Shown here: positions 3,574-42,902 of the stretch, one piece after another | How the letters are laid out: each line of letters begins with the position of its first letter | Position numbering within the stretch: position 1 is the stretch's first letter | Source: a virus | Lineage: Duplodnaviria > Caudoviricetes | Direction: 5' to 3' (one strand) | Length of the DNA stretch: 64,000 nucleotides | IMG/VR virus record: IMGVR_UViG_3300025715_000009 | Coordinates: 192,001 to 256,000 of that record | Program-made: the position numbers and the translations under genes | Notes under the pieces: generated by a model | What the model saw: the letters and a program-made list of their open reading frames with translations, nothing else | Database searches by the model: none | Told to the model about the DNA's origin: nothing

Positions 3574-3590
3574 TTTTATCTCCTTTATAA

Positions 3591-3597: not shown

Positions 3598-3603
3598 TGT
3601 CTA

Positions 3604-4140: not shown

Positions 4141-4148
4141 ATTTCCTC

Positions 4149-6789: not shown

Positions 6790-6801
6790 ATTATTCTCCT
6801 A

Positions 6802-7779
6802 TTAAGTCAAGGTTGTACTAACCCAAGATGTTCCATTATAAATATATAATATATTAGTTGATGCATCAAATCTAACTGTTCCTGCAGTTGGTGAATCCGA
6901 TGGTGCACCTGATGTTGATGGAATTAAAATTTCATTAAATTTGGTATCAACTTCACTCTCTGTATAATATCTATCATCATGATTATGATTACCCTCTGCA
7001 AATGTTCCAGATGTTGTTCCAAATGATCCAGTTGTTACTACTCCGTCTGTAGTTGTTTTAAGAGGTAAGTTAGCTGTTGATCCAACTTTACCATCATTAG
7101 TTATATTACCATGTTCATGATCACCTTCAGCAACAGAATCTGATACAGTGCCAAAATCTTTATTAAATGCTGTGTTCTTTGTGAATACTGGTTCATAAAC
7201 ACCACTGTGGTCATGTGTTGTATCAGATTTAGATAATAACAAAGTATCAACTTGTAATTGAGTATATTTATCTAAATCAGTTATATCCGTCTCTGTATGA
7301 GTGTGTCCTGTAGGTGAATAAGACAAATCATGATTATGTGATCCTATTGCTAATTGTGTGGCTGCAGTACCAATATCTCCATTTGTTTGCAATGTTTCAA
7401 AAGTAACTGCTGCAGAAGTTATATAATTTTCTGAGTGTGATGTATTTGAGTGAGTTGTTGGATTATATAATGATGGTTTATTTATAACATTAGAAAAATC
7501 AACTTGTTTTTTACCACTACTCTCCCCTTCGAAAAATGCATCAACTTCTTCTTCTGTATAATATACATCATTGTGATCATGCACTCCAACTCCACCTGGT
7601 GTAAGTTCTAACCATGCTGAAGATCCACCAAACCATAACTTGCTTGTATCTTCAGCATGTATTACTACACCTATATAATCACTTGACCAAATTGGAAGTG
7701 TTGCTTCATGCTCAACTCCATGTGGTTTTCCATTAATCTTTATTGGCTTTTGAAAATCTATTGTTCCCTGCCATTTCAT
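6802..7779 (-). CDS. Tail fibre-like protein with His-rich phage tail repeats
   Basis: Repeats HDHNDVYYTEEEVD, HTHTETDI, HNHDDRYYTESEVD. Confidence 0.75.
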   Translation of the reverse strand: MKWQGTIDFQKPIKINGKPHGVEHEATLPIWSSDYIGVVIHAEDTSKLWFGGSSAWLELTPGGVGVHDHNDVYYTEEEVDAFFEGESSGKKQVDFSNVINKPSLYNPTTHSNTSHSENYITSAAVTFETLQTNGDIGTAATQLAIGSHNHDLSYSPTGHTHTETDITDLDKYTQLQVDTLLLSKSDTTHDHSGVYEPVFTKNTAFNKDFGTVSDSVAEGDHEHGNITNDGKVGSTANLPLKTTTDGVVTTGSFGTTSGTFAEGNHNHDDRYYTESEVDTKFNEILIPSTSGAPSDSPTAGTVRFDASTNILYIYNGTSWVSTTLT

Positions 7780-7831
7780 ACTCTATCCTCCTATATTATT
7801 TCTAAAATATTGAGCTTTGCTCATTATAGGT

Positions 7832-29642: not shown

Positions 29643-30685
29643 TGTACTATTTTCCTTAATATATTATTAATATCGAAAAACTCATCAAAAACTATAATAT
29701 TCTTTCCATTATTTATACATTCTAAAATTTTATATTCAAAATTATCATCCCAGTAGTATCTTGAATGTGGTTCAAGATATATATCATATTCTGGTAAATA
29801 AAAGTCTGGAAAATAATATTTTTGTTTTTTATTTTTATCAAAATATTTTATCCCACTAATTCCCTTATGTGCAATCCATTTTATATTATTTTCGGTTAAA
29901 AATTTTGCCACAAGTAATTCAAAACTTCCTTGTATTAATTGACCATTATATTCAATCCACTTGCATCTATTGTTAATTTTTAATTGAGCCTCTGCAGTTT
30001 GCATATAATTTTCAACTCCGTATTTTTTTAAACAAGTTTGTTTTTGTTTTTCTATATTAGTATAATTTTCATTACCATATCTTTCAAGTTTTGTTTGTTT
30101 TTGTTTTTCTATATTAGTATAATTTTCATTACCATATCTTTCAAGTTTTGTTTGCCTTCTTTTATCAAGAACAAATTTCAACTGCCCTGGGTTTTCAACG
30201 CCATACTTTTTTTTAAATCCATTGTGTCTTAAATCTTTCCATGTTTTATTATATTTAATTTTAAGTGTTTTTTCTTTTTTTTCATGTATTAACATATTTT
30301 CTGTTTTAGATTTATTTAATTTAGATTTAGATATTTTTTCTTTAATACTTCTTCTTTGAGAATTAAATTCGACACCATATTTTTTCAAATTATTTTCTTT
30401 CATTTTGTTTATTCTAACAAAAGAATTTTCTTTTTGTTCTAATGATAATGAACATTTTTTGCAAAGGTTTTTATTTTTTTTAACTCTATAGTTTGCTATA
30501 TGAATTGTTTCTTGATAAGAGCACTTATCACACTTATATTCTATTAAATCTCTTTTATTACATATTATTTTTTTATTTATTATAAAAGTAAAATACTTTT
30601 TATTATTGTAGATTGTTTCTTTCCATTCTATAAAATTTTCTAAAAACAAATATTCTTTTTCAATTTTTATTATTCTTATATTCAT
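29633..30685 (-). CDS. Putative free-standing homing endonuclease (Zn finger, KYGVEN repeats, PD-(D/E)XK/TnsA-N-like domain)
   Basis: CDKC...CKKC; KKYGVEN/ERYGNEN repeats; GSFELLVAKFL...YFPDFYLPEYDIYLE. Confidence 0.7.
   Translation of the reverse strand: MNIRIIKIEKEYLFLENFIEWKETIYNNKKYFTFIINKKIICNKRDLIEYKCDKCSYQETIHIANYRVKKNKNLCKKCSLSLEQKENSFVRINKMKENNLKKYGVEFNSQRRSIKEKISKSKLNKSKTENMLIHEKKEKTLKIKYNKTWKDLRHNGFKKKYGVENPGQLKFVLDKRRQTKLERYGNENYTNIEKQKQTKLERYGNENYTNIEKQKQTCLKKYGVENYMQTAEAQLKINNRCKWIEYNGQLIQGSFELLVAKFLTENNIKWIAHKGISGIKYFDKNKKQKYYFPDFYLPEYDIYLEPHSRYYWDDNFEYKILECINNGKNIIVFDEFFDINNILRKIVQWR
30036..30154. repeat. Perfect 57-bp tandem duplication (about 2.1 copies) within the endonuclease gene
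   Basis: Identical units start at 30036 and 30093; encode QTKLERYGNENYTNIEKQK twice. Confidence 0.9.
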
Positions 30686-30721: not shown

Positions 30722-32998
30722 TTAAGCGTAATTACTATCCTTGTATTTAAAAACTAAACCATGAATTTTATTTTCAATCATTGCTTCACCATCATATTCA
30801 TCATTTGATACAACATAAATTCTATTATATTTTGCGGGCATTTGCTGTTCTTCTAATTTAGAATAATTGATAGCGCCTAAATTTGATAATTGTTGTTGTG
30901 TTATTTGGTCTAAAACATATCTTTTATAAAGATGATAATTTGTTCCTAAATAATCTAATTGGAAAAATCTTACACCATCAAAATTCATTATATCACTAAT
31001 AATATCTGGAACAAGAATAGGCTTATCATATGTCATTTTATCAAGACTATATTTATTTCTAATATAATTTTCCAAATTCTCTACAACATGTGTTCTCATA
31101 TTTTTATAACAATGAACCGTTCCTGCTATGTCGAATGGTAAAAATTCACTATCTTTTATATGATTATCAACACAAATCATTTTTTTATTTTTTACTATCT
31201 CTAATAAATTATATTCTTCTGATGTTGTATTATCAGCATCATAATTATCAGCATAATATATTATAACTTTTTGATTAGTAGATATAGTGCCAGACGTTAA
31301 TCTTGTGATATTACCAGTTTGCCAATCAACTGAATAATCTTTGTCTTGTGTATATAACACATCCATTTTATTATTATAAATTTTAATGGTATAAGCAGGA
31401 TATAATATATTATTTCCTAATCCTAAATATATTTTGTCTGCTAAGTCAAATGTTTTCACTGTTTTTGTATAAAAGTCAGCAACATTTGATTTAATATATC
31501 TTACTCTTAATGTTCTGTCTCCAGATGGTATAGAACCGCCACTAACAGTTGATATACGTGTTATTTCTCCAGTTGTGCGGTTTAATGTATAATCTACTCC
31601 TTCTATATATGATTGCACGGTTAGCCAATTAGAACCTTCAGCACTATTTTCATATAAAGTAATATATAAATTATGACTATAATATTTTTTTATCTTACCT
31701 AATAAAGTTGTTTGATTGGTTGCACTAAAAATAATATCTTCATATCCATCTTCTTGCCATATATCATAAGGACGAGTTATATTAAATAAATTATTATATT
31801 CATATGGTGAATAACTTGACCATTCGTCTCTTGTTGGTGTTATATACAACCAGGTATCTAATGGTGGAAGAGAGTATCCATAATCTTGTTTTAATTCTTC
31901 TGGTTCATTCTCTGCACCTATTGCTTTAACATGCATAATTCTTGAATCATCTTCAAGATGTGTGATATAATCTTCTTCTGTAACTGTTTTATTGGCCGTT
32001 CTAAGTGATATTGGTGCAATTAATTTCTCTTCTTCAATATCATCACCATCCGCTCCTCCAACTGCTGCTTTTGGATTAGATAATATAGCAGTAACTCTTT
32101 TGCCGCCTGAAGAATAAGTTTTTGTAGTCGATATTCCCTTGGCAACAATATTTGTGTTATTGCCTCCACCAACACGATAATAAACTTTTATCTTTTCACC
32201 TTTTTCTGGTGTTTTAACAATTTGTGATGAACCCCACTTTATTGTCATTCTATTTTGAGCATCTATTTCAATCATATAGGGTGGAATTTTATCTGCCATT
32301 GATATAAGTTCTGGTTGTTGTGCTTCTGGTGAAACAAATGATTGAACTTCTATATGTTCTTTACCAGTTGTTTCTGAATATACTCGAATAGATTTTTCTA
32401 TTACAGGATAATTTATAAGCACGACCTGTTCATTGTCTACACCATCTAAAAAAATATCTGAATCTATAAATGTTCTGCCTTGATAATATGGTATATTACT
32501 TATTTCTTTTATTTTATTGTCTTCTGTTCCAGTGTTTATTAAATGTTCATAATCATAATTTGGTTTACCATCTGATGCTATTTCTAAACACTCAAATGTT
32601 ATTGCATCCCCATTTTTATCCGTTGCTTGTATAGCATCTCTCTTAGGAAGGACAAAAGATGGAACCCATTGGGTTAATTTCATTGTAACATTTGCTTTAG
32701 ATGCTTTAGGTAATGATGGTCTGTGGTTAATTAATTTTAATAGATTAATTACAGATTGTCTTTGTGTAGCAGTTGAAATAAATAATTCACGAGCAATCCA
32801 ATCTGCTCTCTCTGCAAATTTTTGTATAATAAATGATACAAGTTCAACTGTCATTCTACCAGCATTACTTTCAAGAAAGTCGTCCCACTCTTGATTATAT
32901 TCTGGATGTTCTTGTATAAGTTCTTTTATATCTTCTATTATTGTATCAAAGTCAAGCGAAGTATATGAAAATTTTGGTAATTGTATTAATTTATCCAT
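30722..32998 (-). CDS. Baseplate wedge protein (baseplate J / T4 gp6-like)
   Basis: YTSLDFDTI...WDDFLESNAG...ELFISTATQRQSV; YRVGGG...N; AVGGADG...VTEEDY. Confidence 0.9.
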   Translation of the reverse strand: MDKLIQLPKFSYTSLDFDTIIEDIKELIQEHPEYNQEWDDFLESNAGRMTVELVSFIIQKFAERADWIARELFISTATQRQSVINLLKLINHRPSLPKASKANVTMKLTQWVPSFVLPKRDAIQATDKNGDAITFECLEIASDGKPNYDYEHLINTGTEDNKIKEISNIPYYQGRTFIDSDIFLDGVDNEQVVLINYPVIEKSIRVYSETTGKEHIEVQSFVSPEAQQPELISMADKIPPYMIEIDAQNRMTIKWGSSQIVKTPEKGEKIKVYYRVGGGNNTNIVAKGISTTKTYSSGGKRVTAILSNPKAAVGGADGDDIEEEKLIAPISLRTANKTVTEEDYITHLEDDSRIMHVKAIGAENEPEELKQDYGYSLPPLDTWLYITPTRDEWSSYSPYEYNNLFNITRPYDIWQEDGYEDIIFSATNQTTLLGKIKKYYSHNLYITLYENSAEGSNWLTVQSYIEGVDYTLNRTTGEITRISTVSGGSIPSGDRTLRVRYIKSNVADFYTKTVKTFDLADKIYLGLGNNILYPAYTIKIYNNKMDVLYTQDKDYSVDWQTGNITRLTSGTISTNQKVIIYYADNYDADNTTSEEYNLLEIVKNKKMICVDNHIKDSEFLPFDIAGTVHCYKNMRTHVVENLENYIRNKYSLDKMTYDKPILVPDIISDIMNFDGVRFFQLDYLGTNYHLYKRYVLDQITQQQLSNLGAINYSKLEEQQMPAKYNRIYVVSNDEYDGEAMIENKIHGLVFKYKDSNYA

Positions 32999-33002: not shown

Positions 33003-33365
33003 TTACTCCAAATCAAAATTATAAGTCAAAATATTGGCACTTTCAGGTGGCTCGCTTTTTAAAACAAAAGATAGTTTTACTTGAATAAGATTTTCATCCT
33101 CTAATGAAATGATATCTAAACCTAAAATATTTACTCGTGGTTCATATTGAGAAATTTGGTCAGTTATGAGATTTTCAAGATAGGCCGTGGTTTCATCATC
33201 TATTTGATTAAATAAAATATTTCTTAAACCAACACCAAAATATGGTTGCCCTACTCTTTCACCTGGATTAGTCATGAGGATACGTGTTATTGATTCTGCA
33301 ATCAATTCTTTGTTTTGTTTTATGACAAAAAAATCCTTGTCATAAAAAGCGAGTCCGTTTGCCAT
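33003..33365 (-). CDS. Baseplate wedge/sheath initiator (gp25/GPW family)
   Basis: ILMTNPGERVGQPYFGVGL..LF...YEPRV. Confidence 0.92.
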   Translation of the reverse strand: MANGLAFYDKDFFVIKQNKELIAESITRILMTNPGERVGQPYFGVGLRNILFNQIDDETTAYLENLITDQISQYEPRVNILGLDIISLEDENLIQVKLSFVLKSEPPESANILTYNFDLE

Positions 33366-33386: not shown

Positions 33387-33980
33387 TTAGATTTGTGCGT
33401 ATAATTTATTAAATTCATCTTCTAATTGAGCATTGTTAAACACTTCATTTAATGCTTGTGGACTAACTGTAGCATAATCCATACCAGAGAGTATGGCATC
33501 AATTACTTCATGTTTTCCTCTAAATGAAGCACCTACTAATTTTATATTTGATTTGCTTATTTGTTTTAATTTATATGCTTGTTTAAACAAATCAGGGTTC
33601 TCATTTTTATGTTTATAAACCATGGTGTAGTCAACACCAAATTCTATTGCTTGATTTATTTGAACAATGTCATATATTGTAGTTGTTGCTACTTGATAAT
33701 TTTTAGATTTTAATTCTTTAATAAAATTATAATGTTTTGGATGAAGCATCACTTTAAAAATTATATTTTTATTTTTAAATTTTTCAACTTCATGCATATT
33801 AGACACTTGAATAAAAATTTTTTTATTTAATCTATTTGGTATAGAAGCAACCATATCTAAAAATTGTTCAGTTGTTATTCCTTCTTTTTCTAATAGATAA
33901 GGATTAGATGTTACACCTTCTATAACTGGAAGCCATTCAAGAATATCTTCTTTTTTAACACTGTCTAAAAAATATGTCAT
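33387..33980 (-). CDS. Transaldolase/fructose-6-phosphate aldolase family protein (FSA-like residues)
   Basis: YFLDS, GVTSNP, IFIQV, Schiff-base Lys in IFKV, GASFR, ATVSP. Confidence 0.85.
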   Translation of the reverse strand: MTYFLDSVKKEDILEWLPVIEGVTSNPYLLEKEGITTEQFLDMVASIPNRLNKKIFIQVSNMHEVEKFKNKNIIFKVMLHPKHYNFIKELKSKNYQVATTTIYDIVQINQAIEFGVDYTMVYKHKNENPDLFKQAYKLKQISKSNIKLVGASFRGKHEVIDAILSGMDYATVSPQALNEVFNNAQLEDEFNKLYAQI

Positions 33981-34711
33981 AAATCCTCCAAGTCTTGTGG
34001 TATATCAACTCCATGGCTTTTATGAACCATTTCTATTAATTTAATAGACAATCCATGTTCTAAGAAGGATATTTGTTCAAGCCCTTCTTTTTTGGCCAAA
34101 TCACTAACAAAGTAATTAATATTATTAAAGTCCATTCTTTTAAATAAACATGGGTGGAAGATAAAAATTCCAATATGCTGCTTGTATTCTTCAATTGGCA
34201 ATAAACCATTCTTTGAGTATGGAATAGGAGAACGCGAAAAATATAAAACATTATCATCATGACTTACTATCTTACAACTTCTATTTAATTCTATTCTGTT
34301 TTTATCATAAAACTTAGTATAGCAAGTTGTAATAAAATCTTCAGGACCATATTGTTTTTCAAGGTGTTTAAACCACATTTTATTTATTTCTTGATGGTCT
34401 AACATTGGTTCATCTGATGGAAATGATACATACCAATCGTAGTTAGGATATTTTTTCCAAACATGATATGACCTTTCACTTCCACATCCTACTTGTTCCC
34501 ACATATAAAAATATTCTATATTTCTATTTTTACAATGTGTTGCTACCTCTTGACTATCTGTTGCAACAATTAAATGGTCGGCTATTTGTGCTGATAAAAC
34601 ATTATTAATTACTTTATCAATTATTTTTTCACCATCTATTTCAGCAAATAACTTGTTTGGAAAACGCTCGCTCTTTAATCTTGCAGGTATAATTGCTAGC
34701 ATGTTATTCAT
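33977..34711 (-). CDS. kdsB: CMP-Kdo synthetase-like cytidylyltransferase
   Basis: IIPARLKSERFPNK, VATDS, GSER, DEPML, LYFSRSPIPY, HIGIF, EGLEQ, GVDIPQDL. Confidence 0.9.
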   Translation of the reverse strand: MNNMLAIIPARLKSERFPNKLFAEIDGEKIIDKVINNVLSAQIADHLIVATDSQEVATHCKNRNIEYFYMWEQVGCGSERSYHVWKKYPNYDWYVSFPSDEPMLDHQEINKMWFKHLEKQYGPEDFITTCYTKFYDKNRIELNRSCKIVSHDDNVLYFSRSPIPYSKNGLLPIEEYKQHIGIFIFHPCLFKRMDFNNINYFVSDLAKKEGLEQISFLEHGLSIKLIEMVHKSHGVDIPQDLEDL

Positions 34712-35450
34712 ATATTTGTTGTATTACCTCTTTTAGTTGATTTGATGGTATCATAACTTGACCATCACATAAAGCATTTTCACAATCTGGATGTGTTTCT
34801 AAAAATATACCATCTGCTCCAGCAGCAATATATGCTCTACCTAATGTTATGGCATTATCTACTTTATCTCCAGGATAGTTTTTATTAGGGTGAGTAATAT
34901 CACATAAAACAGGAAAAGAACATCTTTTCATAATAGGGACATGACGTGGGTCCATGAATACTTGGTTATATCCTAACTGTGTTCCTCTATCTGTTATTAT
35001 AATTTTATCAGCACCATATTTCCAGGCATTATTGGCTATATTAATCATATCTTCAGGGCCTACAAATTGAGGTTTTTTAATATGCATGCCTAAATTATGT
35101 TTAGAGCAGAAAGCGGCGGCCTCTTTTAATAAAGAGTGTTGTTTGGCTAAATAGGCAGGAATTTGAATTAAATCAATTTGTGAAAAATCATATTTTATAA
35201 AGTCTTCTGGTGTATGAACATCAGTGCATATTTTTATTTTATATTCGTATTTTATATCTAATAGGAAATCAATTGCTTGTTGTGGGTTTATGCCAGAAAA
35301 TCCAGTAGTTGTTGTTCTATTATCCTTTCTCCAAGAAGACTTAAAATAAAAATCAACATTTAAATCAGAAATTGATTTGAGTAAATCATTTATTGTTTTT
35401 TGTAATATGTCTTTGCTCTCTATTACGCAAGGTCCTGCTATTAAAATCAT
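34704..35450 (-). CDS. kdsA: Kdo 8-phosphate synthase-like protein (divergent; metal-type Cys)
   Basis: IAGPCVIES, FKSS..KDNRT, TDVH, QIPAYL, KKPQF, DRG, DITH, FLETHPD...ALCDG. Confidence 0.9.
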   Translation of the reverse strand: MILIAGPCVIESKDILQKTINDLLKSISDLNVDFYFKSSWRKDNRTTTTGFSGINPQQAIDFLLDIKYEYKIKICTDVHTPEDFIKYDFSQIDLIQIPAYLAKQHSLLKEAAAFCSKHNLGMHIKKPQFVGPEDMINIANNAWKYGADKIIITDRGTQLGYNQVFMDPRHVPIMKRCSFPVLCDITHPNKNYPGDKVDNAITLGRAYIAAGADGIFLETHPDCENALCDGQVMIPSNQLKEVIQQIYE

Positions 35451-35459
35451 ATTATTTAT

Positions 35460-35487
35460 AAAAATGGTCAGACTTAGAGTCTGACCA
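35460..35487 (-). terminator. Rho-independent terminator closing the CXXX/radical SAM cluster
   Basis: 10-bp stem tggtcagact/agtctgacca followed by TTTTT on the minus strand. Confidence 0.75.
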
Positions 35488-35504: not shown

Positions 35505-35777
35505 TTATTTTATAAGTTGTAGTTTTTTCTTATCAAAATCCACATTCCAAGAATTTTCTGATGTAGTTATAATATTATTTTCTTTTTGCATTTTTTCAAA
35601 CCATGCATCATAATTAATTTGTGCATTGGTCAATTCTTGTATTAATTTTTCAAACACAAATTTGTTGTCTTGTGGTGTAAAATCTTTAATTAAAGATTTT
35701 ATTGCTAAAAGACCTGTATTTAGCATTCTTATTTCTTGTGCTTGTTGTTCAGATAAATCGATTTCTTTTATTATCAT
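35505..35777 (-). CDS. CXXX-repeat modification system accessory protein
   Basis: About 90 aa, helical, ending YDAWFEKMQKENNI...WNVDF, adjacent to the maturase. Confidence 0.75.
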   Translation of the reverse strand: MIIKEIDLSEQQAQEIRMLNTGLLAIKSLIKDFTPQDNKFVFEKLIQELTNAQINYDAWFEKMQKENNIITTSENSWNVDFDKKKLQLIK

Positions 35778-35805
35778 ATTTACTCCTTTATATAAAGTAT
35801 GCTTT

Positions 35806-36960
35806 TTATAAACTATTATCTAGTTCATTATATTTTTTCCAATAAATTTCTGCCCATTTTGATTGAATTTTATGAATTTCACAAATATTAGTTTGACGAT
35901 AAAACTTTCCACATTCAGCATAAGCTGATCCTATACACCATGCACAATTAGACTCAACGGGGCATGATATGCATTCTGGTTTACTTATATTGGCCCTTGT
36001 TTGATCTCTAATAAGTTTAAATCTATCTTTATGATAAAATCCATTAAAAACATCACCAACATAAAAATCTAATTCTTTTGAAGACATAGTATGTGGCATA
36101 AATCTAAAACATGGATATATTTTACCATTTATACTAAGTGCTGGCATTGCACCAGAACCACACCATCCTTTATCTGGTTCTTGCATAGGTTTACCTACGC
36201 CAAATTCTTTACTTATAATTGACCAATATAAATCATTTTTGTGTTGTAAAACAAAATCAACACATTTTTCCATTTGTTCATCTAAAATACTTAAATCTTT
36301 TTCTTCTAAGTATAATGGTTCAAAAATAAAGTTTTGATTTATATTGCGCAATCCTAAGTCCAAATGCATAAATTTTAAAGAATCATATAAATATGGAATG
36401 CTTTCTTTATTAAGAGTAGATTTAGTTGTTGCATTTTCCAATCCAACATATTGTATATACCAATCCCAATATTTTAAAATATCATCCATGCTATTACTTC
36501 TATTTAGATTATGTATTGTTGGGCTTCCATCTACAGATATTCCAAGAGAAATATTTCCTTTAAATTCTTCTAAAAAATCTCTTACATTCGGGTCACCAAA
36601 TAAAGTTCCATTTGTAGAAATAGAACTTCTCCATCGTGTAGCCCATCTATGATTTTTTATTGTAGATGCAAAAATAAAATATCTTAATATGTCTCTTGTT
36701 AAAATTGGGCGCATTAATGCATCACCACCAATGAAATCTAAAATCAAACCTTGTTTCATTATCCATGCTTCTGATGTTCCCATAACTCCAATTGGATCTG
36801 GATCATCTAAAATAAGATCAATAAATTTTTTTGCATATTCTAAAGGTAAATCACCTGGTTTTTTATTTAATTCATAACAATATTTACATCGTAAATTACA
36901 ATCTTCTGTAACATTAAAAGTAATATTAAATCCAGCATATTGTGGTTGTGGTTCAATCAT
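35806..36960 (-). CDS. Radical SAM/SPASM peptide maturase, CXXX-repeat target type
   Basis: ITFNVTEDCNLRCKYCY, LDFIGG, STNGT, ISVDG, SPASM Cys CGSG...YPCFRF...CISC...C..C...C; start moved from 36996 to ATG 36960 (RBS GAGG). Confidence 0.9.
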   Translation of the reverse strand: MIEPQPQYAGFNITFNVTEDCNLRCKYCYELNKKPGDLPLEYAKKFIDLILDDPDPIGVMGTSEAWIMKQGLILDFIGGDALMRPILTRDILRYFIFASTIKNHRWATRWRSSISTNGTLFGDPNVRDFLEEFKGNISLGISVDGSPTIHNLNRSNSMDDILKYWDWYIQYVGLENATTKSTLNKESIPYLYDSLKFMHLDLGLRNINQNFIFEPLYLEEKDLSILDEQMEKCVDFVLQHKNDLYWSIISKEFGVGKPMQEPDKGWCGSGAMPALSINGKIYPCFRFMPHTMSSKELDFYVGDVFNGFYHKDRFKLIRDQTRANISKPECISCPVESNCAWCIGSAYAECGKFYRQTNICEIHKIQSKWAEIYWKKYNELDNSL

Positions 36961-37240
36961 TTTTACCTCTATGCACAATAAGAGCTGAGTTTTCAAAATC
37001 TAATGAGATGTTTCTTTCTGATATATTGTATTTTTCTATAATCATATTCCACCACTTTTGTTCAAGCCATAAACTTTCACCTCTTGCAGTTATAACTGAA
37101 TTTACGTATTTATTCATTGTTTCTTGATCAATATTAAGTGGAATAGTTTTGATCATCTGTCTAGTTGTTTCTAATTTGTTTAATATAATGTTCATAGAAT
37201 CAATTTCTTCTTTTTCTATTTGTATTGAAGTGATCATCAT
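36953..37240 (-). CDS. Second CXXX-system accessory protein (paralogue of 35505-35777)
   Basis: EQKWWNMIIEKYNI...ISLDF; AAGGAG RBS. Confidence 0.7.
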   Translation of the reverse strand: MMITSIQIEKEEIDSMNIILNKLETTRQMIKTIPLNIDQETMNKYVNSVITARGESLWLEQKWWNMIIEKYNISERNISLDFENSALIVHRGKND

Positions 37241-37248
37241 TTTCTCCT

Positions 37249-38202
37249 TTAGTATTTAAAATATCCAAGACATGGTTTTTCACACTCTTTTTCATATTTA
37301 CATTTAGAACAAATTTCTGGAATTGGTATATTGTTTTTTATTATTTGAGCTTTATTAGATAAAGCATTTTCTATTTCTGATAATGTTTTATATTGATTTT
37401 GTTTTATAGTAATTTTAGAATTGGAATAACAATATATCACTTCTCCGCTTGGAAGAAAATCAGTTGGTATAAATGTATGGCCACAAATTTTATCTTGTTT
37501 ATTGTATTGTTTAACAAACAAATACTGATCTTTAGTACTATACATGCATTTATATAATATATTATCTACACCAACATTTAATCCTAATTTTAGGATAAAA
37601 GAAATTAATTTAATCATATTTTCACCAATTATTGTATTTCCCAAAAAGTTTATATTTTTCTGTTCATCATTAGATGGACATGCAGTGCTTATTCTAATTG
37701 TTGATATATTGGGAACTTGTTTATGTAAAAAATCTATATATTTTATATATTCCTCCACATTAAAATCAATTGGGAATGTAATCCTTACAGGCATAAAATC
37801 ACAACCAAATGGTTGTTTTTTATTTAAGACAGCATAGATATCATTATAATTCTTTTTAAAAATAAAAATTCTATCTAAAACATCTAATTCACTAGCATTT
37901 ATTAAAAATGCCAATGAATTATTTTGTATATATTTTATTAACAAATTTTTTACGTTTTCTGAAAAAAGAAAATTTGTTATAAGAAATGGATCATTTTCTT
38001 TTTTTAAAGAATTTAAAATTATATCAAAATTTGGATGAAGTGTGGGTTCACCACCCATGATAGGTGCTATTGGATCTTTTATTAAAATATCATTAAATGT
38101 TTCTATATCCATATGTTGTTTTATTTCTAGATTTCTAGTTATTTTAGCAAAACAAAAAGAGCAATTTTTGTTACATGCGTTAGTTAATACAATATGAGAC
38201 AT
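37249..38202 (-). CDS. Radical SAM protein with SPASM/Twitch-like C-terminus
   Basis: LTNACNKNCSFCF, GGEPTLHP, TN, C-terminal CGH...YCY...CSKC...CEKPCLG. Confidence 0.88.
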   Translation of the reverse strand: MSHIVLTNACNKNCSFCFAKITRNLEIKQHMDIETFNDILIKDPIAPIMGGEPTLHPNFDIILNSLKKENDPFLITNFLFSENVKNLLIKYIQNNSLAFLINASELDVLDRIFIFKKNYNDIYAVLNKKQPFGCDFMPVRITFPIDFNVEEYIKYIDFLHKQVPNISTIRISTACPSNDEQKNINFLGNTIIGENMIKLISFILKLGLNVGVDNILYKCMYSTKDQYLFVKQYNKQDKICGHTFIPTDFLPSGEVIYCYSNSKITIKQNQYKTLSEIENALSNKAQIIKNNIPIPEICSKCKYEKECEKPCLGYFKY

Positions 38203-38210
38203 TATTTACC

Positions 38211-38771
38211 TTAGTTTAATAATATATATGCAGAATGATTACCATTTTTTCTTTTATGTAAAATAAATCTTTTAGAATTATTTTCTTTTAATCTATTGAC
38301 CAAATTATCATATAATTTTATTTTATTCTGTTTATTAAAATAATAATATATATGTTCAAGATTCATATCAAAATTTTCAGGACAATCACACCAATAGAAT
38401 ATACTTTCAACTTTATTTTCTAATGTCATTTTAGACATAACAATATAACTTGTCTGTTTTAAATCTTGATCCAATGGATATTCAGCTTCAAATTCATATT
38501 TTTCAATAGAAGAAAATGTTATATAATAACTTTCAAGAACATTGTTTATAAAAGCAACATAGCATCCATTTAAAAATACGTCAAGATTGAAAACAAAATC
38601 TTTAATAGATTGTGGAATTAAATTAAATTTAGATGAAAATAAAAAATATTCAGCATCTATTTTGCCAGTATTAATTTCTGTTTTTATAATATGATCTCTA
38701 GGTGGAGATAAAATATCTTCGCGCCAAACTAATTCGTTTTCATCTAAATTATAAACTAAATCATATGACAT
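38211..38771 (-). CDS. Hypothetical protein (paralogue of 38772-39290)
   Basis: YDLVYNL...YYFNKQNKIKLYDNLVNRL...AYILLN. Confidence 0.75.
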   Translation of the reverse strand: MSYDLVYNLDENELVWREDILSPPRDHIIKTEINTGKIDAEYFLFSSKFNLIPQSIKDFVFNLDVFLNGCYVAFINNVLESYYITFSSIEKYEFEAEYPLDQDLKQTSYIVMSKMTLENKVESIFYWCDCPENFDMNLEHIYYYFNKQNKIKLYDNLVNRLKENNSKRFILHKRKNGNHSAYILLN

Positions 38772-39290
38772 TTAATTAATTAAAATCCATGCAAAATATT
38801 CATCATTTGTTTTAGATAATAAATAAAAAATCATGTCTTTTGAATTTAGCAAATCAACTAAATTATTATATATTTGAATATTATTTTTTTTATTAAAATA
38901 ATCATATAACTCTGATGATTTATAATAACGATATAGTAATTCAGTTTTTTCTAAATCTGTTTTTGCAATTATTAAATCACTTAATTTAAATAATTCTGGA
39001 TCAATTTCAACATTAAAATTATAATTTTCTTTTGGATCAAAAACTAAATAATATTCTATATGAGAATTACCATCCATCATAATTATTGAAGAATTTTCAT
39101 GAAAATTGAATTTTTCTATGATAGAAAGATGATCTGATGTTATTAGAGATTTTTTATTATTATATTGATATCCATTATAAATTAATTCTTTTGAATTAGA
39201 ATCAATTATTTCAAAATTAGTATTATCATTTTTAAATAAAATTTCATATATAAAATTTTTTGTACCAAGATTATAACATAAATATTTCAT
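38772..39290 (-). CDS. Hypothetical protein (paralogue of 38211-38771)
   Basis: YLCYNL...DYFNKKNNIQIYNNLVDLL...AWILIN. Confidence 0.75.
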   Translation of the reverse strand: MKYLCYNLGTKNFIYEILFKNDNTNFEIIDSNSKELIYNGYQYNNKKSLITSDHLSIIEKFNFHENSSIIMMDGNSHIEYYLVFDPKENYNFNVEIDPELFKLSDLIIAKTDLEKTELLYRYYKSSELYDYFNKKNNIQIYNNLVDLLNSKDMIFYLLSKTNDEYFAWILIN

Positions 39291-39299
39291 ATTTTCCTC

Positions 39300-40229
39300 C
39301 TAAGCTCTTCCTGAAGCATCAGCACCTTGTCTAGCAGAATTAGCACATCCACTACTACATGATGAAAGACATGTAGCATTACAGCCACTAAGACATAAAT
39401 TATTACATACGGTGTTACAACTGGTTAAACAAGTATTGGAACATCCAATACCACATGTTCCAGTACAATTGATAGATGCACATGTTGATGTGCAACTGTT
39501 TGTACATGTTCCAACTGTACATGTATTTGCGCATGTTCCAACTGTGCAAACATCACCACATGTAGCAGAACAAGATAATCCACATGGTGAACATGACCAA
39601 CCAGATCCAGAAACGTATCCCTTACAACCATTAGAACAGCCACCACCACAACGCCCAGTACAATCAACTTTACAACCAGTTTGACAATTTACACCACAAT
39701 AGTTTTTACAACCATTTTGACAATTTCCAGTACATAAAGTACCACATACATTATCACATGCAGTAGAACAAGTTCCACTACACCCATTGCATCCATTTTT
39801 ACATGTAGCAGTACAATCAAAGGCACATGAGACACCACATGTTGATAAACAAACAGATGCACATGTTATTGAACAGCCAACACATTTTGCTCCATTAGCT
39901 GCATCATCAACAACTTGACGAACTTCTTCAAGGTGTTTATTTAGAATAAATGTTGGACTTGGAAATGTTGTATTTGTAAAGTTAAAATTTATTCCGGTGC
40001 TTCCGATAGCATTACTATAATCAACTAATCCATTGACACCATTTCTTAAATCTATTATTACTTGTGGACTTGCTTTTGATCCCTCGGTTGGCAATGTAGT
40101 CCACGAAACAGTTGATAAATCTCTTTTAGGTCTTTCAACGTTTATATGGTTCATTGTTTCTGTTAAATCAATATCATTAATTGGTTTTTCAAAAAGAGGT
40201 TTGTTTGAATAGGTTTTTTCATTAGACAT
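39300..40229 (-). CDS. Cys-x-x-x repeat protein (44 Cys), predicted radical SAM substrate
   Basis: About 115-aa Cys-free N-domain, then Cys at nearly every fourth residue; AGGAG RBS. Confidence 0.9.
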   Translation of the reverse strand: MSNEKTYSNKPLFEKPINDIDLTETMNHINVERPKRDLSTVSWTTLPTEGSKASPQVIIDLRNGVNGLVDYSNAIGSTGINFNFTNTTFPSPTFILNKHLEEVRQVVDDAANGAKCVGCSITCASVCLSTCGVSCAFDCTATCKNGCNGCSGTCSTACDNVCGTLCTGNCQNGCKNYCGVNCQTGCKVDCTGRCGGGCSNGCKGYVSGSGWSCSPCGLSCSATCGDVCTVGTCANTCTVGTCTNSCTSTCASINCTGTCGIGCSNTCLTSCNTVCNNLCLSGCNATCLSSCSSGCANSARQGADASGRA

Positions 40230-40240
40230 ATTAATTCTCC

Positions 40241-40293
40241 TAATTGAATCTAGTTATTATTATCTTAAGTATTTTAATAACTAGATTCAATTA
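40241..40293. promoter_or_regulatory. Perfect 19-bp inverted repeat with AAGATAA in its loop, abutting the RBS
   Basis: taattgaatctagttatta (40241-40259) and taataactagattcaatta (40275-40293); loop contains ttatctt at 40260-40266. Confidence 0.75.
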
Positions 40294-40319
40294 TTTGTTA
40301 AAATTATTATATATTATAA

Positions 40320-42605
40320 CTATGCCATTAATATCATTACCCATACTCTTGATGGGGTGGAATCTTCTTTTTTCTCCATAACTTTTGCGAATATTTTTCC
40401 TTGACCATCTTCACCGGCTCGCTTAACAGTAGCAAAACCTATTTTGCTTGATGTAATTAATAAATCACCAATTTTACAAGGCTCATCAATCCAAACTTTT
40501 ACTCTTCCAGATATTCCCACTGGGAGTTTATTCTCTTGATTTTCTGCACCAAGAGCATAACCAAATGTATCAGAATAAACACCAACCACCGCTGCATCTC
40601 CTCTATTAGAACAAGGAGCTACACCATATTCTGTTTGAACCAAAACCATACCAGGTTCTGCATCTAATGCTTTTGGCATAAATTCTGCCAAATCGTTCCA
40701 CACTGCATTATATACTCTTGTGGCATATAAATAGCCATCTAAATTTAATCTATCTGTTGCTGTAGGATCGGTTGTACCAGAATAAAATTCACCAGTTGTT
40801 TTAGAAGTAAATTTTCTCATTAGTTCTGCTGTACTACCAACTTTTCCAGCTTCCCATTTATCTGTTGTTTCATTCCACTTAAGCTGAGCATCATTATCAC
40901 CTTCAGTAGTTGTTTTTGCTCTTCTTACAGAGACCGTGGCATCACCATCTGCTCCTGGGTTTGCAAATTTAATTAAAACATCAGAATCAGATACTTGACT
41001 GTTTTGTGAATCAATATATACTGTTGTCCCACTTACAGTTAAATTACCAGGGATAGTAACATTACCATCACCAGAAATAGTTAATAAAGAAGAAGTAGAT
41101 GACCCATTATTTGCTGCAAATATAATTTGGTCCCCTGCATCTCTACCAATTTCATGTCTAACAATTGTATTTGATCCGCTTGTTTCACAAACAATTTGAG
41201 CAAAATCATCTACTTCTGCTAATGGTTTAAATAAAACTTCATTGGTATATATTCTGGCAAGTTCTTTGGTTGAAGATCCTATTTCCATGGAATCATTATT
41301 AAGAGGTATAATATTACCAGACATAATCATATTATTTTCAACAGAAATTTTTCCTGTTCCAGATGTGCTTAACACAATGTCTTGATTTGTAGTTGCTGTT
41401 ATAGAAGTATTTGTACTTGGAAGACTTGCTTGAACAATTTCACCATATGTTACCCCATCATTAGAAACTTTAAGTTTTCCACTGTCTACTTTTATAATAT
41501 GACTTGTTCCTAAATAAATTGTAGATTCATCAAAATGTCCAGTTTGTGCATAAACATTACCAAATTTGTGTGTTGCATCTCCTAAATCTACTTGCCCATT
41601 ATTTGCTGGAATTAAATCTTTTCCATTTTGAATAGCAGATACATTTTGTAAGTAATTAAAATCAACAACAGCATTTCCTGAAACATAATCTTCTACCCAT
41701 ATTTTTGATGCATATTGAGAAAGAGATGCTGATTTATAGACAAGTAATGTAACTCTATCGGTTGCCACCATACCAGTAGTATAACTGACATCTAATTCGA
41801 TTGTACTTGTATCAATAATTGTATAATCATCTCCAAGTGCTAATAAAAGACCATTATAATAAACAAACAAATCAGACCCATCTAATGAAAACTGTTCATC
41901 TGAAATAAATCTATATTTTGCTGGTGCAACAAGAGGGAAGCCAGATACATCACCTGCAAGTCTTAATGTTGTTACACCATCCCAAGAACCATCTACTGGA
42001 ATAATTTGATAATATGGATCTACTTTTGTAGCTATTCTTAATTGATCATTTGTTGAATCATAAAATAATCTACCAGCTAAAGAAGCAGCCCAAGTTATTC
42101 CTGTTCCTGAAACTGGAGTATCAAATGCTGTAAATCCTGTTAAATGATCATGTAGTCGATGTCTTGAACAATTTGGATTTATTATAACATTTTTATCAAA
42201 ACCAGTATTAGCATTTGTAATTCTTATATCACCACTTACCAAACTAATTGATAATGATGCTGGAAGAGCAGCATCCATAAGTGAAATAACTGTGTTATAA
42301 GATATTGGTTCACTTTGTCCTGTTGTATTAATAGAGTACTCTACCCCATTAACATCAAAATAATAAATAGTGGTTGGTTTTAATCCAGAATTGCCTGATC
42401 CATCTCCTATAGAAAGACCAAATTCTTGATAACCAGCAGCAAATGTATCAAAATCTTCTACTACTGTAACTGTACCTTTTGTAATCCATCCAGTTGGATC
42501 AGCAGCTGCATTTGCTATTTTTGATTGTTTAATTGCAGCATTAACTGCAATTTGTAAGTCACTTAAACTTTGACTTTGTATTTGTTCAGCTCGTAATTTG
42601 GGCAT
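40320..42605 (-). CDS. Tail fibre with C-terminal autoproteolytic intramolecular chaperone (Peptidase_G2-like)
   Basis: AVWNDLAEFM...PGMVL...VVGVYS...PVGISGRVKV...GDLLITS; internal modules shared with other fibres. Confidence 0.8.
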   Translation of the reverse strand: MPKLRAEQIQSQSLSDLQIAVNAAIKQSKIANAAADPTGWITKGTVTVVEDFDTFAAGYQEFGLSIGDGSGNSGLKPTTIYYFDVNGVEYSINTTGQSEPISYNTVISLMDAALPASLSISLVSGDIRITNANTGFDKNVIINPNCSRHRLHDHLTGFTAFDTPVSGTGITWAASLAGRLFYDSTNDQLRIATKVDPYYQIIPVDGSWDGVTTLRLAGDVSGFPLVAPAKYRFISDEQFSLDGSDLFVYYNGLLLALGDDYTIIDTSTIELDVSYTTGMVATDRVTLLVYKSASLSQYASKIWVEDYVSGNAVVDFNYLQNVSAIQNGKDLIPANNGQVDLGDATHKFGNVYAQTGHFDESTIYLGTSHIIKVDSGKLKVSNDGVTYGEIVQASLPSTNTSITATTNQDIVLSTSGTGKISVENNMIMSGNIIPLNNDSMEIGSSTKELARIYTNEVLFKPLAEVDDFAQIVCETSGSNTIVRHEIGRDAGDQIIFAANNGSSTSSLLTISGDGNVTIPGNLTVSGTTVYIDSQNSQVSDSDVLIKFANPGADGDATVSVRRAKTTTEGDNDAQLKWNETTDKWEAGKVGSTAELMRKFTSKTTGEFYSGTTDPTATDRLNLDGYLYATRVYNAVWNDLAEFMPKALDAEPGMVLVQTEYGVAPCSNRGDAAVVGVYSDTFGYALGAENQENKLPVGISGRVKVWIDEPCKIGDLLITSSKIGFATVKRAGEDGQGKIFAKVMEKKEDSTPSRVWVMILMA

Positions 42606-42639: not shown

Positions 42640-42707
42640 TCAAGCATATTTTATAAAAGTTCATTATATGAAAACAAAATGTATATTTATATACAAATAA
42701 AGGATAT

Positions 42708-42860
42708 ATGGAAAAATATAAAACAATAAGAATGCGAGAAGCATTTTGGAAAGAGATTAGTCATTTATCTGTTGAGTTAGATAAAACAATGGGTGAGACT
42801 ATTAAATATCTTTATGATTATTATAAGACTAACGGTGGCAAAGGCATAATGAAAAAATAA
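42708..42860 (+). CDS. Putative ribbon-helix-helix DNA-binding protein (50 aa; absent from ORF track)
   Basis: MEKYKTIRMREAFWKEISHLSVELDKTMGETIKYLYDYYKTNGGKGIMKK; AAGGA RBS; fills the otherwise largest gap and ends at a hairpin. Confidence 0.7.
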   Translation: MEKYKTIRMREAFWKEISHLSVELDKTMGETIKYLYDYYKTNGGKGIMKK

Positions 42861-42883
42861 ATGGGGCTCGTTACGAGCCCCAT
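42852..42883 (-). terminator. Rho-independent terminator between convergent genes
   Basis: GC-rich 10-bp stem atggggctcg/cgagccccat; TTATTTTTT follows on the minus strand. Confidence 0.85.
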
Positions 42884-42902
42884 CTAATTAAGTTAATTTA
42901 AC

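Follow-up and report, generated by a model that had tools for sequence, protein, structure and literature searches.

Organization of the fibre and CXXX genes

The locus lies within a window of 64 kb, the whole stretch of DNA that was analysed, taken from the 388-kb genome of a phage from sludge. It comprises a gene for a tail-fibre-like protein of 761 aa (P0002, 40320–42605) followed by seven cassette genes, all on the minus strand. In order, the cassette encodes a CXXX-repeat substrate protein of 309 aa (P0001, 39300–40229), two paralogous proteins of 172 aa (38772–39290) and 186 aa (38211–38771), a second radical SAM enzyme of 317 aa (37249–38202), a TIGR04116-like helper of 95 aa (type A, 36953–37240), a CXXX-type radical SAM/SPASM maturase (35806–36996) and a further TIGR04116-like helper of 90 aa (type B, 35505–35777).

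Two terminator-like hairpins on the minus strand enclose the fibre gene together with the cassette. One of them (42858–42886, 13 bp with 7 GC pairs and a T run) closes the upstream gene for a 2090-aa protein. The other, found by sequence scan at 35465–35487, closes the unit itself and confirms the terminator given in the preliminary description. A T4-type late-promoter motif, TATAAATA, is located on the minus strand at 42684–42691, about 80 nt 5′ of the fibre start codon, and a second copy (35453–35460) lies after the terminator and before a KdsA-like gene. The window contains 32 copies of the motif where 19 would be expected, and its presence alone is weak evidence; the arrangement is best explained by a single late transcription unit comprising the fibre gene and the cassette. 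The gap between the fibre and CXXX genes contains a perfect 19-bp RNA hairpin (40241–40293, minus strand; ΔG −24.4 kcal/mol, z −5.95), which none of 200 shuffled sequences matched in folding and whose extended stem touches the translation start of the CXXX gene, including its Shine-Dalgarno sequence.

The cassette had been placed inside the virion tail module, and this is only partly so. Genes for gp25-like (33003–33365) and gp6-like (30722–32998) baseplate proteins are found downstream, but KdsA-like, KdsB-like and transaldolase-like genes sit between these and the cassette, and the upstream proteins of 2090 and 1318 aa matched no PHROG family. With three sugar-metabolism genes in between, the stretch is therefore not purely structural. 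Moreover, the KDO-pathway neighbours bear a similar late-promoter motif, and late expression is thus no mark of a structural protein. A profile search of the whole 388-kb genome gave no match to ABC_tran or Peptidase_C39, in agreement with the earlier remark that exporter and peptidase genes are absent from the window.

Residues 412–501 of P0002 form a module in common with the fibre encoded at 5167–6789 (37% identity over 97 aa, E = 8e-14), so that the two fibres do share an internal module as proposed. The C-terminal domain of P0002 (residues about 620 to 761) resembles the phi29 gp12 autochaperone, with Foldseek matches to 3suc and 3gqh at probability 1.0, a target-normalised TM-score (TMt) of 0.52, 17% identity and borderline E-values of 2–3e-3; Pfam Peptidase_G2 matched weakly (E = 0.043). 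The C-terminal chaperone predicted for this fibre is consequently retained as a candidate autochaperone of the phi29 gp12 type, whereas its assignment as S74 was rejected. A Peptidase_S74 match is found instead in the fibre at 5167–6789 (E = 1.7e-9), next to a gene for a Gly-rich product (4149–5180). This pair was thought to mirror the fibre and CXXX genes. The S74 fibre and its Gly-rich partner were found, but the Gly-rich protein and the N-domain of P0001 are not similar in sequence (E = 0.69).

The Cys ladder and its candidate maturase

P0001 consists of a three-helix N-domain (residues 1–115), a ladder with 44 Cys (residues 116–295) and a conserved C-terminal cap, GCANSARQGADASG. The Cys count and CXXX character reported previously were reproduced, with 36 of the 43 Cys-to-Cys gaps being exactly 4 and the others 3 (three gaps), 5 (three) and 11 (one). 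The N-domain is conserved and confidently modelled by AlphaFold (pLDDT 75–90); the ladder has no predicted fold (pLDDT about 30) and is scarce in Asp and Glu. The ladder comprises 26 to 59 Cys in those family members that were counted and up to about 120 in Margulisiibacteriota targets, which have the same conserved N-domain and cap. That the ends are conserved while the ladder between them varies in length points to a rod or spacer, not to a compact effector. P0001 lacks a signal peptide, and neither signal peptide nor lipobox was found in the phage-type CXXX targets. The helical-repeat module most similar to the N-domain terminates many bacterial extracellular proteins and is not phage-specific.

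Pairwise comparison with a sibling contig revealed that all 44 Cys of P0001 are retained, with a dN/dS of 0.12 at the non-Cys positions of the ladder. Each of the seven cassette genes has a dN/dS of 0.10–0.37 and the cassette is under purifying selection.

The best NCBIfam match of the maturase is TIGR04115 (E = 9e-74), spanning profile positions 4–354 of 359 with 249 bits, below the cut-off of 350 bits. The next-best family is PapB (E = 8e-34), and the QhpD-type family also matches (E = 8e-17). Eight homologues share, without exception, a CxxxCxxC motif and another seven Cys spaced in a SPASM-like pattern; because these homologues align from residue 13, translation probably begins at the ATG at 36960. 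Among solved structures, CteB is closest (5WGG, E = 4.6e-37), compared with 4.6e-11 for an anaerobic sulfatase-maturing enzyme. As the alignment begins at CteB residue 98, the phage maturase lacks the N-terminal RiPP recognition element (RRE) domain. Helpers matching TIGR04116 (type A, E = 2e-8; type B, E = 1e-8) are found on both sides of the maturase, here and in the related phage L010.

The profile check proposed earlier gave a divided answer: TIGR04115 and TIGR04116 both matched below their curated cut-offs and the TIGR04114 repeat model did not match P0001, which weighs against the explanation favoured below. Nevertheless, the genes at 36953–37240, 35806–36996 and 35505–35777 and the target are supported as a genuine CXXX-repeat target/maturase/accessory cassette by family relations and gene content.

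Two enzymes of SPASM type had been described, and this applies to the maturase; the second radical SAM enzyme (Pfam Radical_SAM, 32.9 bits) matched no specific family beyond the generic one, and bears CxxxCxxC at residues 10–17 and a Cys cluster at its C terminus. The four accessory genes are all present, as the two helpers and the two paralogues. The latter are related to each other (E = 9e-11) and belong to no known family; the protein at 38772–39290 is kept in the sibling L175 (81% identity, dN/dS 0.23) and that at 38211–38771 gave weak Imm-like leads only. The second radical SAM enzyme and the paralogue pair are retained alongside the cassette in the sibling phage, and the family of the former is also present in multi-radical-SAM and sugar clusters with no CXXX target. 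All three genes belong to families that also occur outside CXXX systems, and they are not general components of CXXX cassettes.

CXXX cassettes in other phages and in bacteria

Maturase relatives are encoded by 446 stretches in IMG/VR, and a CXXX target adjoins the maturase in about 65 of the best 80 loci from this set. This maturase clade was absent from the cultured phages of the phage collection searched, and a literature search found no paper on phage CXXX cassettes. In P0019, P0024 and P0025, the N-domain, ladder and cap are fused downstream of repeats whose matches are to the C-terminal ends of minor-tail-protein PHROGs. P0028 bears a Lcl_C lectin-type domain (Pfam), and P0020, P0027 and P0030 have inserted domains that are lectin-like by eye only. 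In siphophages the CXXX module comes after tape-measure or fibre genes. In one of these, L011, the fusion occupies the position of the receptor-binding protein, between the tape measure and the lysis genes; the gene order there is tube, tape measure, 1539 aa, 123 aa, CXXX fusion and maturase, and L015 and L054 also have a tape measure upstream of the target. A tail-fibre protein (E = 8e-49) is encoded immediately upstream of the target in L042, and the C-terminal domain of P0002 recurs in the gene at this position in both L041 and L042. Taken together, these comparisons support a linkage of phage CXXX targets to tail genes in unrelated lineages.

A linkage to fibre genes in particular had been predicted, and holds in L041 and L042 but not throughout. 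L010 is the closest giant-phage relative (gp6-like protein 47% identical) and has a CXXX fusion, helper, maturase (66% identical) and second helper directly before gp25/gp6, with no fibre gene ahead of the target; it also contains a large sugar-modification cluster. Two cassettes are located among lysins in L007. The syntenic relatives L092 and L093 keep the fibre, but other genes come next, with no CXXX gene after the fibre within the part sequenced; six other radical SAM genes fill this slot in the sequenced part of L092.

Bacterial homologues are secreted or surface proteins with Tat signals, lipoboxes and Lcl_C domains, and the Bacteroidales genomic targets sampled mostly start with the twin-arginine (Tat) signal SRREFFKK. 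A1-type targets are found in Margulisiibacteriota and Termititenax genomes, where the maturases are 58–61% identical and no recognisable phage genes are nearby. The CXXX module can therefore probably function outside a virion.

Proposed role and comparison with known systems

The explanation that we favour, at about even confidence, is that the late-operon cassette makes a stapled part of the tail apparatus and not a secreted product. The maturase would act in the cytoplasm before lysis, stapling the P0001 ladder through intramolecular thioether links from Cys sulfur to carbon, probably with the assistance of the two TIGR04116-type helpers. The result would be a rigid rod, resistant to reduction and proteases, which would not be exported as a peptide and would most likely be incorporated into the tail apparatus, serving as a fibre accessory or as a component of adhesin type. 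The least supported step is the attachment site, where the rod may cap the neighbouring fibre P0002. The structural role suggested in the preliminary description thus gains from the tail linkage and fusions of other phages, but nothing was found for capping of this fibre in particular. Also weighing against a tail part are the fibre-bearing syntenic relatives whose sequenced portion contains no CXXX gene, the A1-type bacterial targets and the occurrence of N-domain-like modules outside phages; the few Asp and Glu of the ladder, the known acceptors of PapB, weigh against thioether stapling.

The modified protein could alternatively act outside the particle, remaining cytoplasmic or being released by lysis, with its gene near the tail genes only as an accessory (“moron”) gene. 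It might then, for example, serve as a signalling or bacteriocin-like protein, buffer redox state or metals while the infection proceeds, or counter host defences. This is unlikely but deserves serious weight, given that the slot hosts non-structural genes both here and in L010, that L007 has its cassettes among lysins, that L092, as far as it is sequenced, has radical SAM genes and no CXXX target after the fibre, and that bacterial A1-type targets have no phage neighbours; the immunity-protein-like leads of the paralogue pair, weak as they are, point the same way. It is less easily reconciled with fusions that put the module behind domains matching minor-tail-protein tips, with the receptor-binding-protein position in a siphophage, with the rod- or spacer-like conservation pattern and with a genome that has no leader peptidase (Peptidase_C39) or ABC exporter match.

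It is distinctly less probable that the ladder works through its thiols (binding metals or Fe-S clusters in the manner of metallothionein, or forming disulfides after lysis), with radical SAM chemistry of another kind, such as epimerisation, methylation or oxidation of Cys to formylglycine. SPASM enzymes do include the anaerobic sulfatase-maturing enzymes, and the shortage of acidic acceptors and a foldless AlphaFold ladder, as expected for a structure dependent on cofactor or modification, would agree with this. However, the characterised enzymes most closely related to the maturase, by far, are the thioether synthases CteB and PapB, and the strict Cys-x-x-x spacing, with every Cys kept in the sibling, fits a repeated unit of enzyme recognition. 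More improbable still is a role in remodelling the surface of the infected host, by analogy with the Tat-exported Bacteroidales CXXX lipoproteins, which presumably remodel the surface of the cells that make them: the bacterial homologues are surface or secreted proteins and genes for the cell-envelope sugar KDO are adjacent, but export signals are missing from the phage-type targets and an ABC exporter match from the phage genome.

The TIGR04115 maturase, TIGR04116 associated protein and TIGR04114/Pfam PF27846 target repeat constitute a family system defined by comparative genomics, for which the literature search found no experimental paper. The phage cassette has the same adjacent, single-strand triad of Cys-x-x-x target, radical SAM/SPASM enzyme and ~90-aa helpers, and its maturase matches TIGR04115 best over the full length. 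It differs in that none of its three scores reaches the curated cut-off, in its phage late operon with a tail fibre, and in having two helper types, an extra radical SAM enzyme and a paralogous gene pair. Unlike the mostly Tat-bearing Bacteroidales members sampled, its target has a folded N-domain and no signal peptide. CteB (the SCIFF maturase, PDB codes 5WGG and 5WHY) and PapB (the freyrasin maturase) are ranthipeptide thioether synthases that share with the phage maturase a radical SAM core and a SPASM-like Cys pattern for two auxiliary clusters. The RRE in approximately the first 97 residues of CteB is absent, however, and the substrate is a 44-Cys protein rather than a ~45-aa peptide with a leader, with an Asp-poor ladder and no protease or exporter match in the cassette.

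As in the gp37-gp38 pair of T2/S16 phages, the gene for a fibre with a candidate removable chaperone is followed immediately by one for a small repeat-rich protein, although the chaperone-like domain here is of the phi29 gp12 type and relatives have the fibre but, as far as they are sequenced, no CXXX gene. The top fold match of the last ~140 residues of P0002 is the autochaperone of the phi29 gp12 pre-neck appendage (3SUC, 3GQH). QhpD is a radical SAM/SPASM enzyme that cross-links QhpC, the gamma subunit of quinohemoprotein amine dehydrogenase. The substrate, complex and number of links (three) in that case are unrelated to those proposed here, and QhpC is exported to the periplasm; QhpD nonetheless provides a precedent for the installation of several Cys thioethers in a protein that then remains permanently as a structural subunit within a larger complex.

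Genomic setting and transcriptional organization

The source record (388,268 bp, CheckV completeness 98%) is the genome of a giant T4-like myovirus, with a G+C content of 25–38% across the window, all long ORFs on the minus strand, and the DNA runs containing the stretch originating from anaerobic digesters and activated sludge. Recognizable baseplate genes include a gp25-like gene (33003–33365, −; Pfam GPW_gp25, E = 5.5e-15) and a gp6-like wedge subunit (30722–32998, −). Three sugar-metabolism genes (33387–35450, −) separate the cassette from gp25, namely a KdsA-like gene (−; DAHP_synth_1, E = 3e-40), a KdsB-like cytidylyltransferase (−; E = 6e-35) and a short transaldolase/FSA-like gene (−). 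These could serve glycan modification of the host envelope or of virion proteins, and a far bigger sugar-modification cluster occupies the matching position in the giant relative L010. A 350-aa homing-endonuclease-like gene (29633–30685, −; PHROG endonuclease families, E = 1e-9 to 2e-10) separates the gp6-like gene from the following baseplate gene, a match to the Tail_P2_I gene of L010. Elsewhere in the window, a single 4755-aa ORF (7832–22099, −) immediately precedes the fibre-like genes at 6802–7779 and 5167–6789. The large neighbouring proteins of 2090, 1318, 1386, and 947 aa have no PHROG match, and their structural role is therefore an assumption only.

The gene for the 761-aa fibre (40320–42605, −) and the seven cassette genes that follow it look like one late unit, as judged from two terminator-like hairpins and a TATAAATA motif. 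A strong hairpin (42886–42858, −) ends the upstream gene for the 2090-aa protein, the motif (42691–42684, −) stands about 80 nt before the fibre start, and the second hairpin (35487–35465, −) follows the last cassette gene. Directly after the latter, ahead of the KdsA-like gene, lies another TATAAATA motif (−), giving the sugar-metabolism genes a motif of their own. The 90-nt gap between the fibre and CXXX genes contains a perfect 19-bp hairpin (40241–40293, −; dG −24.4 kcal/mol, z −5.95) that extends to the ribosome-binding site of the CXXX gene and may be an RNA processing, stabilizing, or translational control element. Window-identical contigs of sludge RNA libraries from three runs cover the CXXX gene, a coverage that does not by itself imply transcription; no listed RNA-library contig bridges the hairpin gap, and one DNA-run contig does.

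All seven recur in unchanged order on a 4.9-kb sibling contig from a different sample (L175), at 62–92% amino-acid identity, with dN/dS values of 0.10–0.37 for each gene relative to the window. These low values indicate that all seven genes are real and constrained. All 44 cysteines of the ladder, the Cys-repeat region of the target, are retained in L175, and a dN/dS of 0.12 at its non-Cys positions rules out diversifying selection on the ladder.

The enzymes and the CXXX target

The maturase (35806–36996; 396 aa as called) has TIGR04115, the 'radical SAM peptide maturase, CXXX-repeat target family,' as its best family (249.1 bits, E = 9e-74, profile positions 4–354 of 359), a result repeated by the genome search, with PapB as a distant next best (117 bits, E = 8e-34). 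Both helper genes adjoin the maturase gene, and their products of 95 aa (36953–37240, −) and 90 aa (35505–35777, −; the last cassette gene) match TIGR04116 over nearly the full profile with 34.1 and 35.1 bits, respectively (E = 2e-8 and 1e-8). Since all three scores lie below the curated cut-offs (350 bits for the TIGR04115 equivalog and 50 bits for TIGR04116), these proteins are divergent relatives rather than equivalogs. The membership in the CXXX-repeat families suggested in the preliminary description survives for the enzyme and helpers in this weaker form. For the target, P0001, the picture is mixed: its Cys-x-x-x periodicity is plain, and the TIGR04114 repeat model failed to match it even at E = 10. 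Homologues of P0001 score 15–22 bits against that model (cut-off 20), and several have precomputed PF27846 matches.

Within the maturase, Cys21, Cys25, and Cys28 (CxxxCxxC) as well as Cys267, Cys284, Cys330, Cys333, Cys339, Cys342, and Cys360 are invariant in eight homologues. By eye the C-terminal pattern resembles that of a SPASM domain, which would hold two auxiliary clusters; the Pfam SPASM model did not reach E = 0.01 against the protein. Homologues align from residue 13, which probably places the true start at the ATG at 36960 and would give an 8-nt overlap with the helper gene. Among solved structures, CteB (5WGG, E = 4.6e-37) is nearest in sequence; the alignment begins at CteB residue 98, so that the N-terminal substrate-recognition (RRE) domain of CteB is absent from the phage enzyme. 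No solved relative was found with the helper-protein profile; a conceivable identity for the helpers is that of stand-alone RRE-like domains. In the phage collection, a DNA search produced no match, and a protein search with the maturase returned uncultured gut phages (31% identity), generic radical SAM enzymes of giant phages (26%), and nothing else. The only matches to the target by tblastn were mycobacteriophage ORFs, in the repeat region, and these were discounted as composition-driven.

The second radical SAM enzyme (37249–38202; 317 aa) has a CxxxCxxC motif at residues 10–17 and a C-terminal Cys cluster, matches generic radical SAM models only, and has its relatives elsewhere in multi-radical SAM or sugar clusters without CXXX genes. 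The 172-aa (38772–39290) and 186-aa (38211–38771) proteins are paralogous (E = 9e-11) and have no family match above threshold, the immunity-type leads being weak (Imm33, E = 0.46; Atlas Imm11/Imm43, a sub-threshold score of 0.83 for the 186-aa protein). Among the fetched loci their homologues occur in L175 only, with dN/dS values of 0.10–0.23.

The target (39300–40229, −) contains 44 cysteines in 309 aa, all between residues 116 and 295, with a Cys-to-Cys spacing of exactly 4 in 36 of 43 cases. It has no signal peptide, and it is the only CXXX ORF, with the only N-domain, in the whole phage genome; the sole PHROG match is phrog_6085 (E = 8e-4), a family of no assigned function. Close homologues share an N-domain of 113 positions followed by the ladder, with Arg33, Arg62, His99, Gln105, and Asp108–Asp109 among the invariant positions. 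The N-domain is predicted by AlphaFold as three helices (pLDDT 75–90), and the ladder is left unmodelled by AlphaFold2 (pLDDT about 30). A fold search with the N-domain was uninformative, the best VIA-align hits (Z = 5.3) being generic helical bundles, and BFVD gave nothing at E = 0.001, with the top two rows resembling other Cys-repeat phage proteins.

A profile of the N-domain retrieved 362 proteins at E up to 1e-3 from 1.84 billion representative proteins; the domain is a double copy of a unit of ∼40 aa (W-T-D ... T-x-I-R-A-x-H-I-x-E-L-R). This unit is also located at the ends of many bacterial extracellular proteins with β-propeller, fn3, FG-GAP, or LamG domains and is a module of exposed proteins that is not specific to phages. 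Two or three copies are present in P0045, P0050, P0059, P0105, and about 300 others; no Pfam family is reported over this stretch in the Pfam copy searched, and the repeat may be an uncatalogued C-terminal module.

At the other end of the protein, a C-terminal cap (GC-A-N-S-[SA]-R-x-G-x-D-[AP]-G) is common to many members of the CXXX clade. The ladder between varies from 26 to 59 cysteines among the members counted, with about 120 in targets of Margulisiibacteriota. Three fusions of 633–688 aa (P0019, P0024, and P0025) begin with repeats of about 100 aa each; in P0019 and P0024 these resemble the C-terminal ends of phrog_3285 and phrog_3639 (minor tail protein) and that of phrog_5339 (virion structural protein), and in P0025 they likewise match the C-terminal ends of minor tail or virion structural families. 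The phage genome itself has no counterpart of these tail-tip-like N-terminal domains, as judged by phmmer against all of its ORFs. P0028 starts with an Lcl_C lectin-type domain, and P0020, P0027, and P0030 have domains of 170–480 aa inserted between N-domain helices one and two, which by eye look discoidin-like or LamG-like. The rod or stalk of a binding apparatus would be expected to show such features: ends that are conserved, a middle that varies in length, and domains that appear exchangeable.

Cassettes in other phages and in bacteria

An earlier single-sequence scan of viral contigs found almost nothing; a scan of IMG/VR with the maturase profile revealed at least 446 stretches that encode relatives, and of the 80 top-scoring loci about 65 have a same-strand CXXX-repeat ORF beside the enzyme. 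The 69 loci in which the ORF caller recovered the maturase form 22 clusters at 70% identity, and 10 of the 14 clusters having at least 6 kb on each side include a same-strand ORF of at least 600 aa within 8 kb upstream, a crude proxy for tail linkage. In a PHROG search of the upstream neighbours, the gene immediately preceding the target in L042 matched a tail-fibre protein (E = 8e-49), L015 and L054 were found to have tape-measure proteins upstream, and L012 and L025 gave weak host-specificity or fibre matches. Moreover, the C-terminal domain of the window's own fibre recurs directly upstream of the target in L041 (E = 9e-9) and L042 (E = 2e-5), in line with the linkage to fibre genes that the preliminary description proposed to look for in other phages.

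The 732-kb contig L010, with gp6-like and gp25-like proteins 47 and 53% identical to those in the window, carries in order a 688-aa CXXX fusion, a maturase (66% identical) placed between two helpers, a 626-aa gene, gp25, gp6, and Tail_P2_I, with the sugar-modification cluster on the other side of the cassette. The two giant phages thus have in common a cassette slot next to the baseplate wedge genes. In the 53-kb siphophage contig L011, the tail tube and tape measure genes are followed by genes for a 1539-aa protein, in which fibre residues 58–184 recur (E = 1e-10), a 123-aa protein, a CXXX fusion (633 aa), and a maturase (60% identical), and then by small genes and a Peptidase_C39_2-family gene. 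The fusion is here in the usual position of receptor-binding proteins.

Two further phages have arrangements of their own. On the 165-kb contig L007, two separate cassettes are interspersed with CHAP and amidase lysins in the interval from a 1200-aa protein to the tape measure (3971–12786); both cassettes comprise a target, a 96-aa helper, and an approximately 430-aa maturase. Salmonella phage SPN3US (L174, NC_027402) has two ORFs of ∼130 aa with 16–17 Cys-x-x-x steps each (3112–3925), flanked by a 'virion structural protein' gene on one side and two radical SAM genes on the other. They are without such annotation, RefSeq gp100 being called in another frame over the second. SPN3US offers a cultured system with CXXX ORFs next to radical SAM genes.

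The maturase profile also detected at least 294 loci in bacterial genomes, and three types of target were distinguished in the 80 loci examined. Targets of Bacteroidales mostly begin with a twin-arginine signal (SRREFFKK...), often together with a lipobox, and on this sequence evidence are exported surface proteins. Clostridia-type targets begin with a helical 'LKAAVKAEMLRR' domain. The closest bacterial maturases (58–61% identical) are those of Margulisiibacteriota and Termititenax, where the A1-type targets of 495–667 aa have no evident signal peptide save one weak heuristic match and the loci have no recognizable phage neighbours. Several of the Clostridia-type loci (L100, L104, L112, L113, and L130) look like prophages, since their neighbouring genes are shared with viral contigs. 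Targets of the twin-arginine type have no N-domain and yet keep the enzyme and helper, so it is improbable that the N-domain serves as a leader required for recognition; it would have a separate function, for example in docking or oligomerization.

The neighbouring fibre and the nature of the product

The 761-aa fibre has no Pfam or PHROG family match, although it has many homologues, most of which match mainly its C-terminal ∼150 aa, and it shares a 97-aa module with the fibre at 5167–6789 (E = 8e-14). An AlphaFold model of residues 400–761 has a pLDDT of >90 over most of the C-terminal domain, and its best Foldseek matches are 3suc and 3gqh (probability 1.0, TMt 0.52, E = 2–3e-3), pre-mature φ29 gp12 and its C-terminal autochaperone fragment, with weaker matches to T4 gp34 and other fibres. 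Pfam Peptidase_G2 (PF11962) scored 13.7 bits (E = 0.043, cut-off 25), and Peptidase_S74 (PF13884) was matched neither by the whole protein at E = 0.01 nor by parts of it at E = 5; the fibre at 5167–6789 does match Peptidase_S74 (E = 1.7e-9). The autoproteolytic C-terminal chaperone previously ascribed to the 761-aa fibre is consequently plausible as a φ29 gp12-like fold with a putative cleavage, but is not of the S74 type.

The syntenic contigs L092 and L093 both encode a counterpart of the 2090-aa protein as well as a small membrane protein and a fibre 43–51% identical to that of the window. The genes after the fibre differ and include no CXXX target within the fetched stretch. Those of L092 encode a 218-aa protein and a His-rich S74 protein, with six radical SAM genes in a row behind them, one with a product 36% identical to the second radical SAM enzyme of the window and two with SPASM domains, which looks like a different radical SAM-rich system in the same tail-fibre slot. 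The same region (L092, 5959–13924) also encodes a 70-aa protein with 4 cysteines.

Judged by sequence, the target is modular, evolves as a structural or adhesin element would, and is tail-linked in several unrelated phage lineages. The best-supported model, which we put at about even chances, is that of a rod stapled in the cytoplasm and associated with the virion. The preliminary description had seen no exporter or peptidase gene in the window, and this extends to the whole phage genome, where neither the ABC transporter ATPase (ABC_tran) nor Peptidase_C39 was matched, control genomes being matched in both searches. A product that is not part of the virion is a serious rival, albeit with a rather low probability; the weak immunity-type leads of the paralogous pair speak for it, and the fusions of the CXXX module to tail-tip-like domains speak against it.

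A narrower version of the rod model, in which the CXXX protein would cap the adjacent fibre, appears unlikely. The arrangement in L092 and L093, the contexts of the second radical SAM enzyme, and an N-domain unlike the Gly-rich protein make a fibre plus cap one option among others; a short fibre or accessory protein that is independent of the 761-aa fibre accounts for the observations just as well. The proposed parallel with the Gly-rich adhesin (4149–5180) did not hold, given that P0001 is unrelated to it (BLASTP, E = 0.69). A complex prediction of three copies of fibre residues 440–610 with the N-domain returned a score of 0.01, a 'no answer' that weighs neither way on binding.

Returning to the stapled rod, it is possible, though we hold it tentatively, that many tailed-phage lineages, from siphophages of 40 kb to giant phages of 400 kb and more, staple a Cys ladder of variable length by a dedicated radical SAM enzyme into a cross-linked tail or receptor-binding rod. 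Covalent reinforcement of phage particles is familiar from capsids (the isopeptide chainmail of HK97) and from disulfides; full-text literature searches returned no paper on enzymatic thioether stapling of a tail component and none on the CXXX-repeat radical SAM system. If correct, RiPP-type thioether chemistry would be a tool for building virions, radical SAM RiPP chemistry would reach large structural proteins, and the catalogued 'CXXX-repeat peptide' family would be a structural protein module in phages, giving a function to a widespread, computationally defined system (at least 446 phage and at least 294 bacterial loci). It would also suggest how phages of anaerobic, reducing habitats such as sludge and guts, where disulfides are unreliable, stabilize exposed fibres. 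The layout of a variable-length ladder between conserved ends, with seemingly exchangeable binding domains, may be of interest to protein engineers.

Compared with known systems, the fibre may resemble the φ29 gp12 autochaperone in the fold of its C-terminal domain, and the cassette differs from a classical RiPP cluster in several respects. The latter has a short leader-bearing precursor, a maturase carrying an RRE, and a leader peptidase and/or exporter, whereas the phage has a 309-aa substrate with a folded N-domain, a maturase without an RRE, and a genome without ABC_tran or Peptidase_C39 matches. CteB and PapB, the closest characterized enzymes in a comparison by sequence, make Cys thioethers. 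Overall, the cassette is a genuine though divergent relative of the CXXX-repeat radical SAM system and resembles a member of it.
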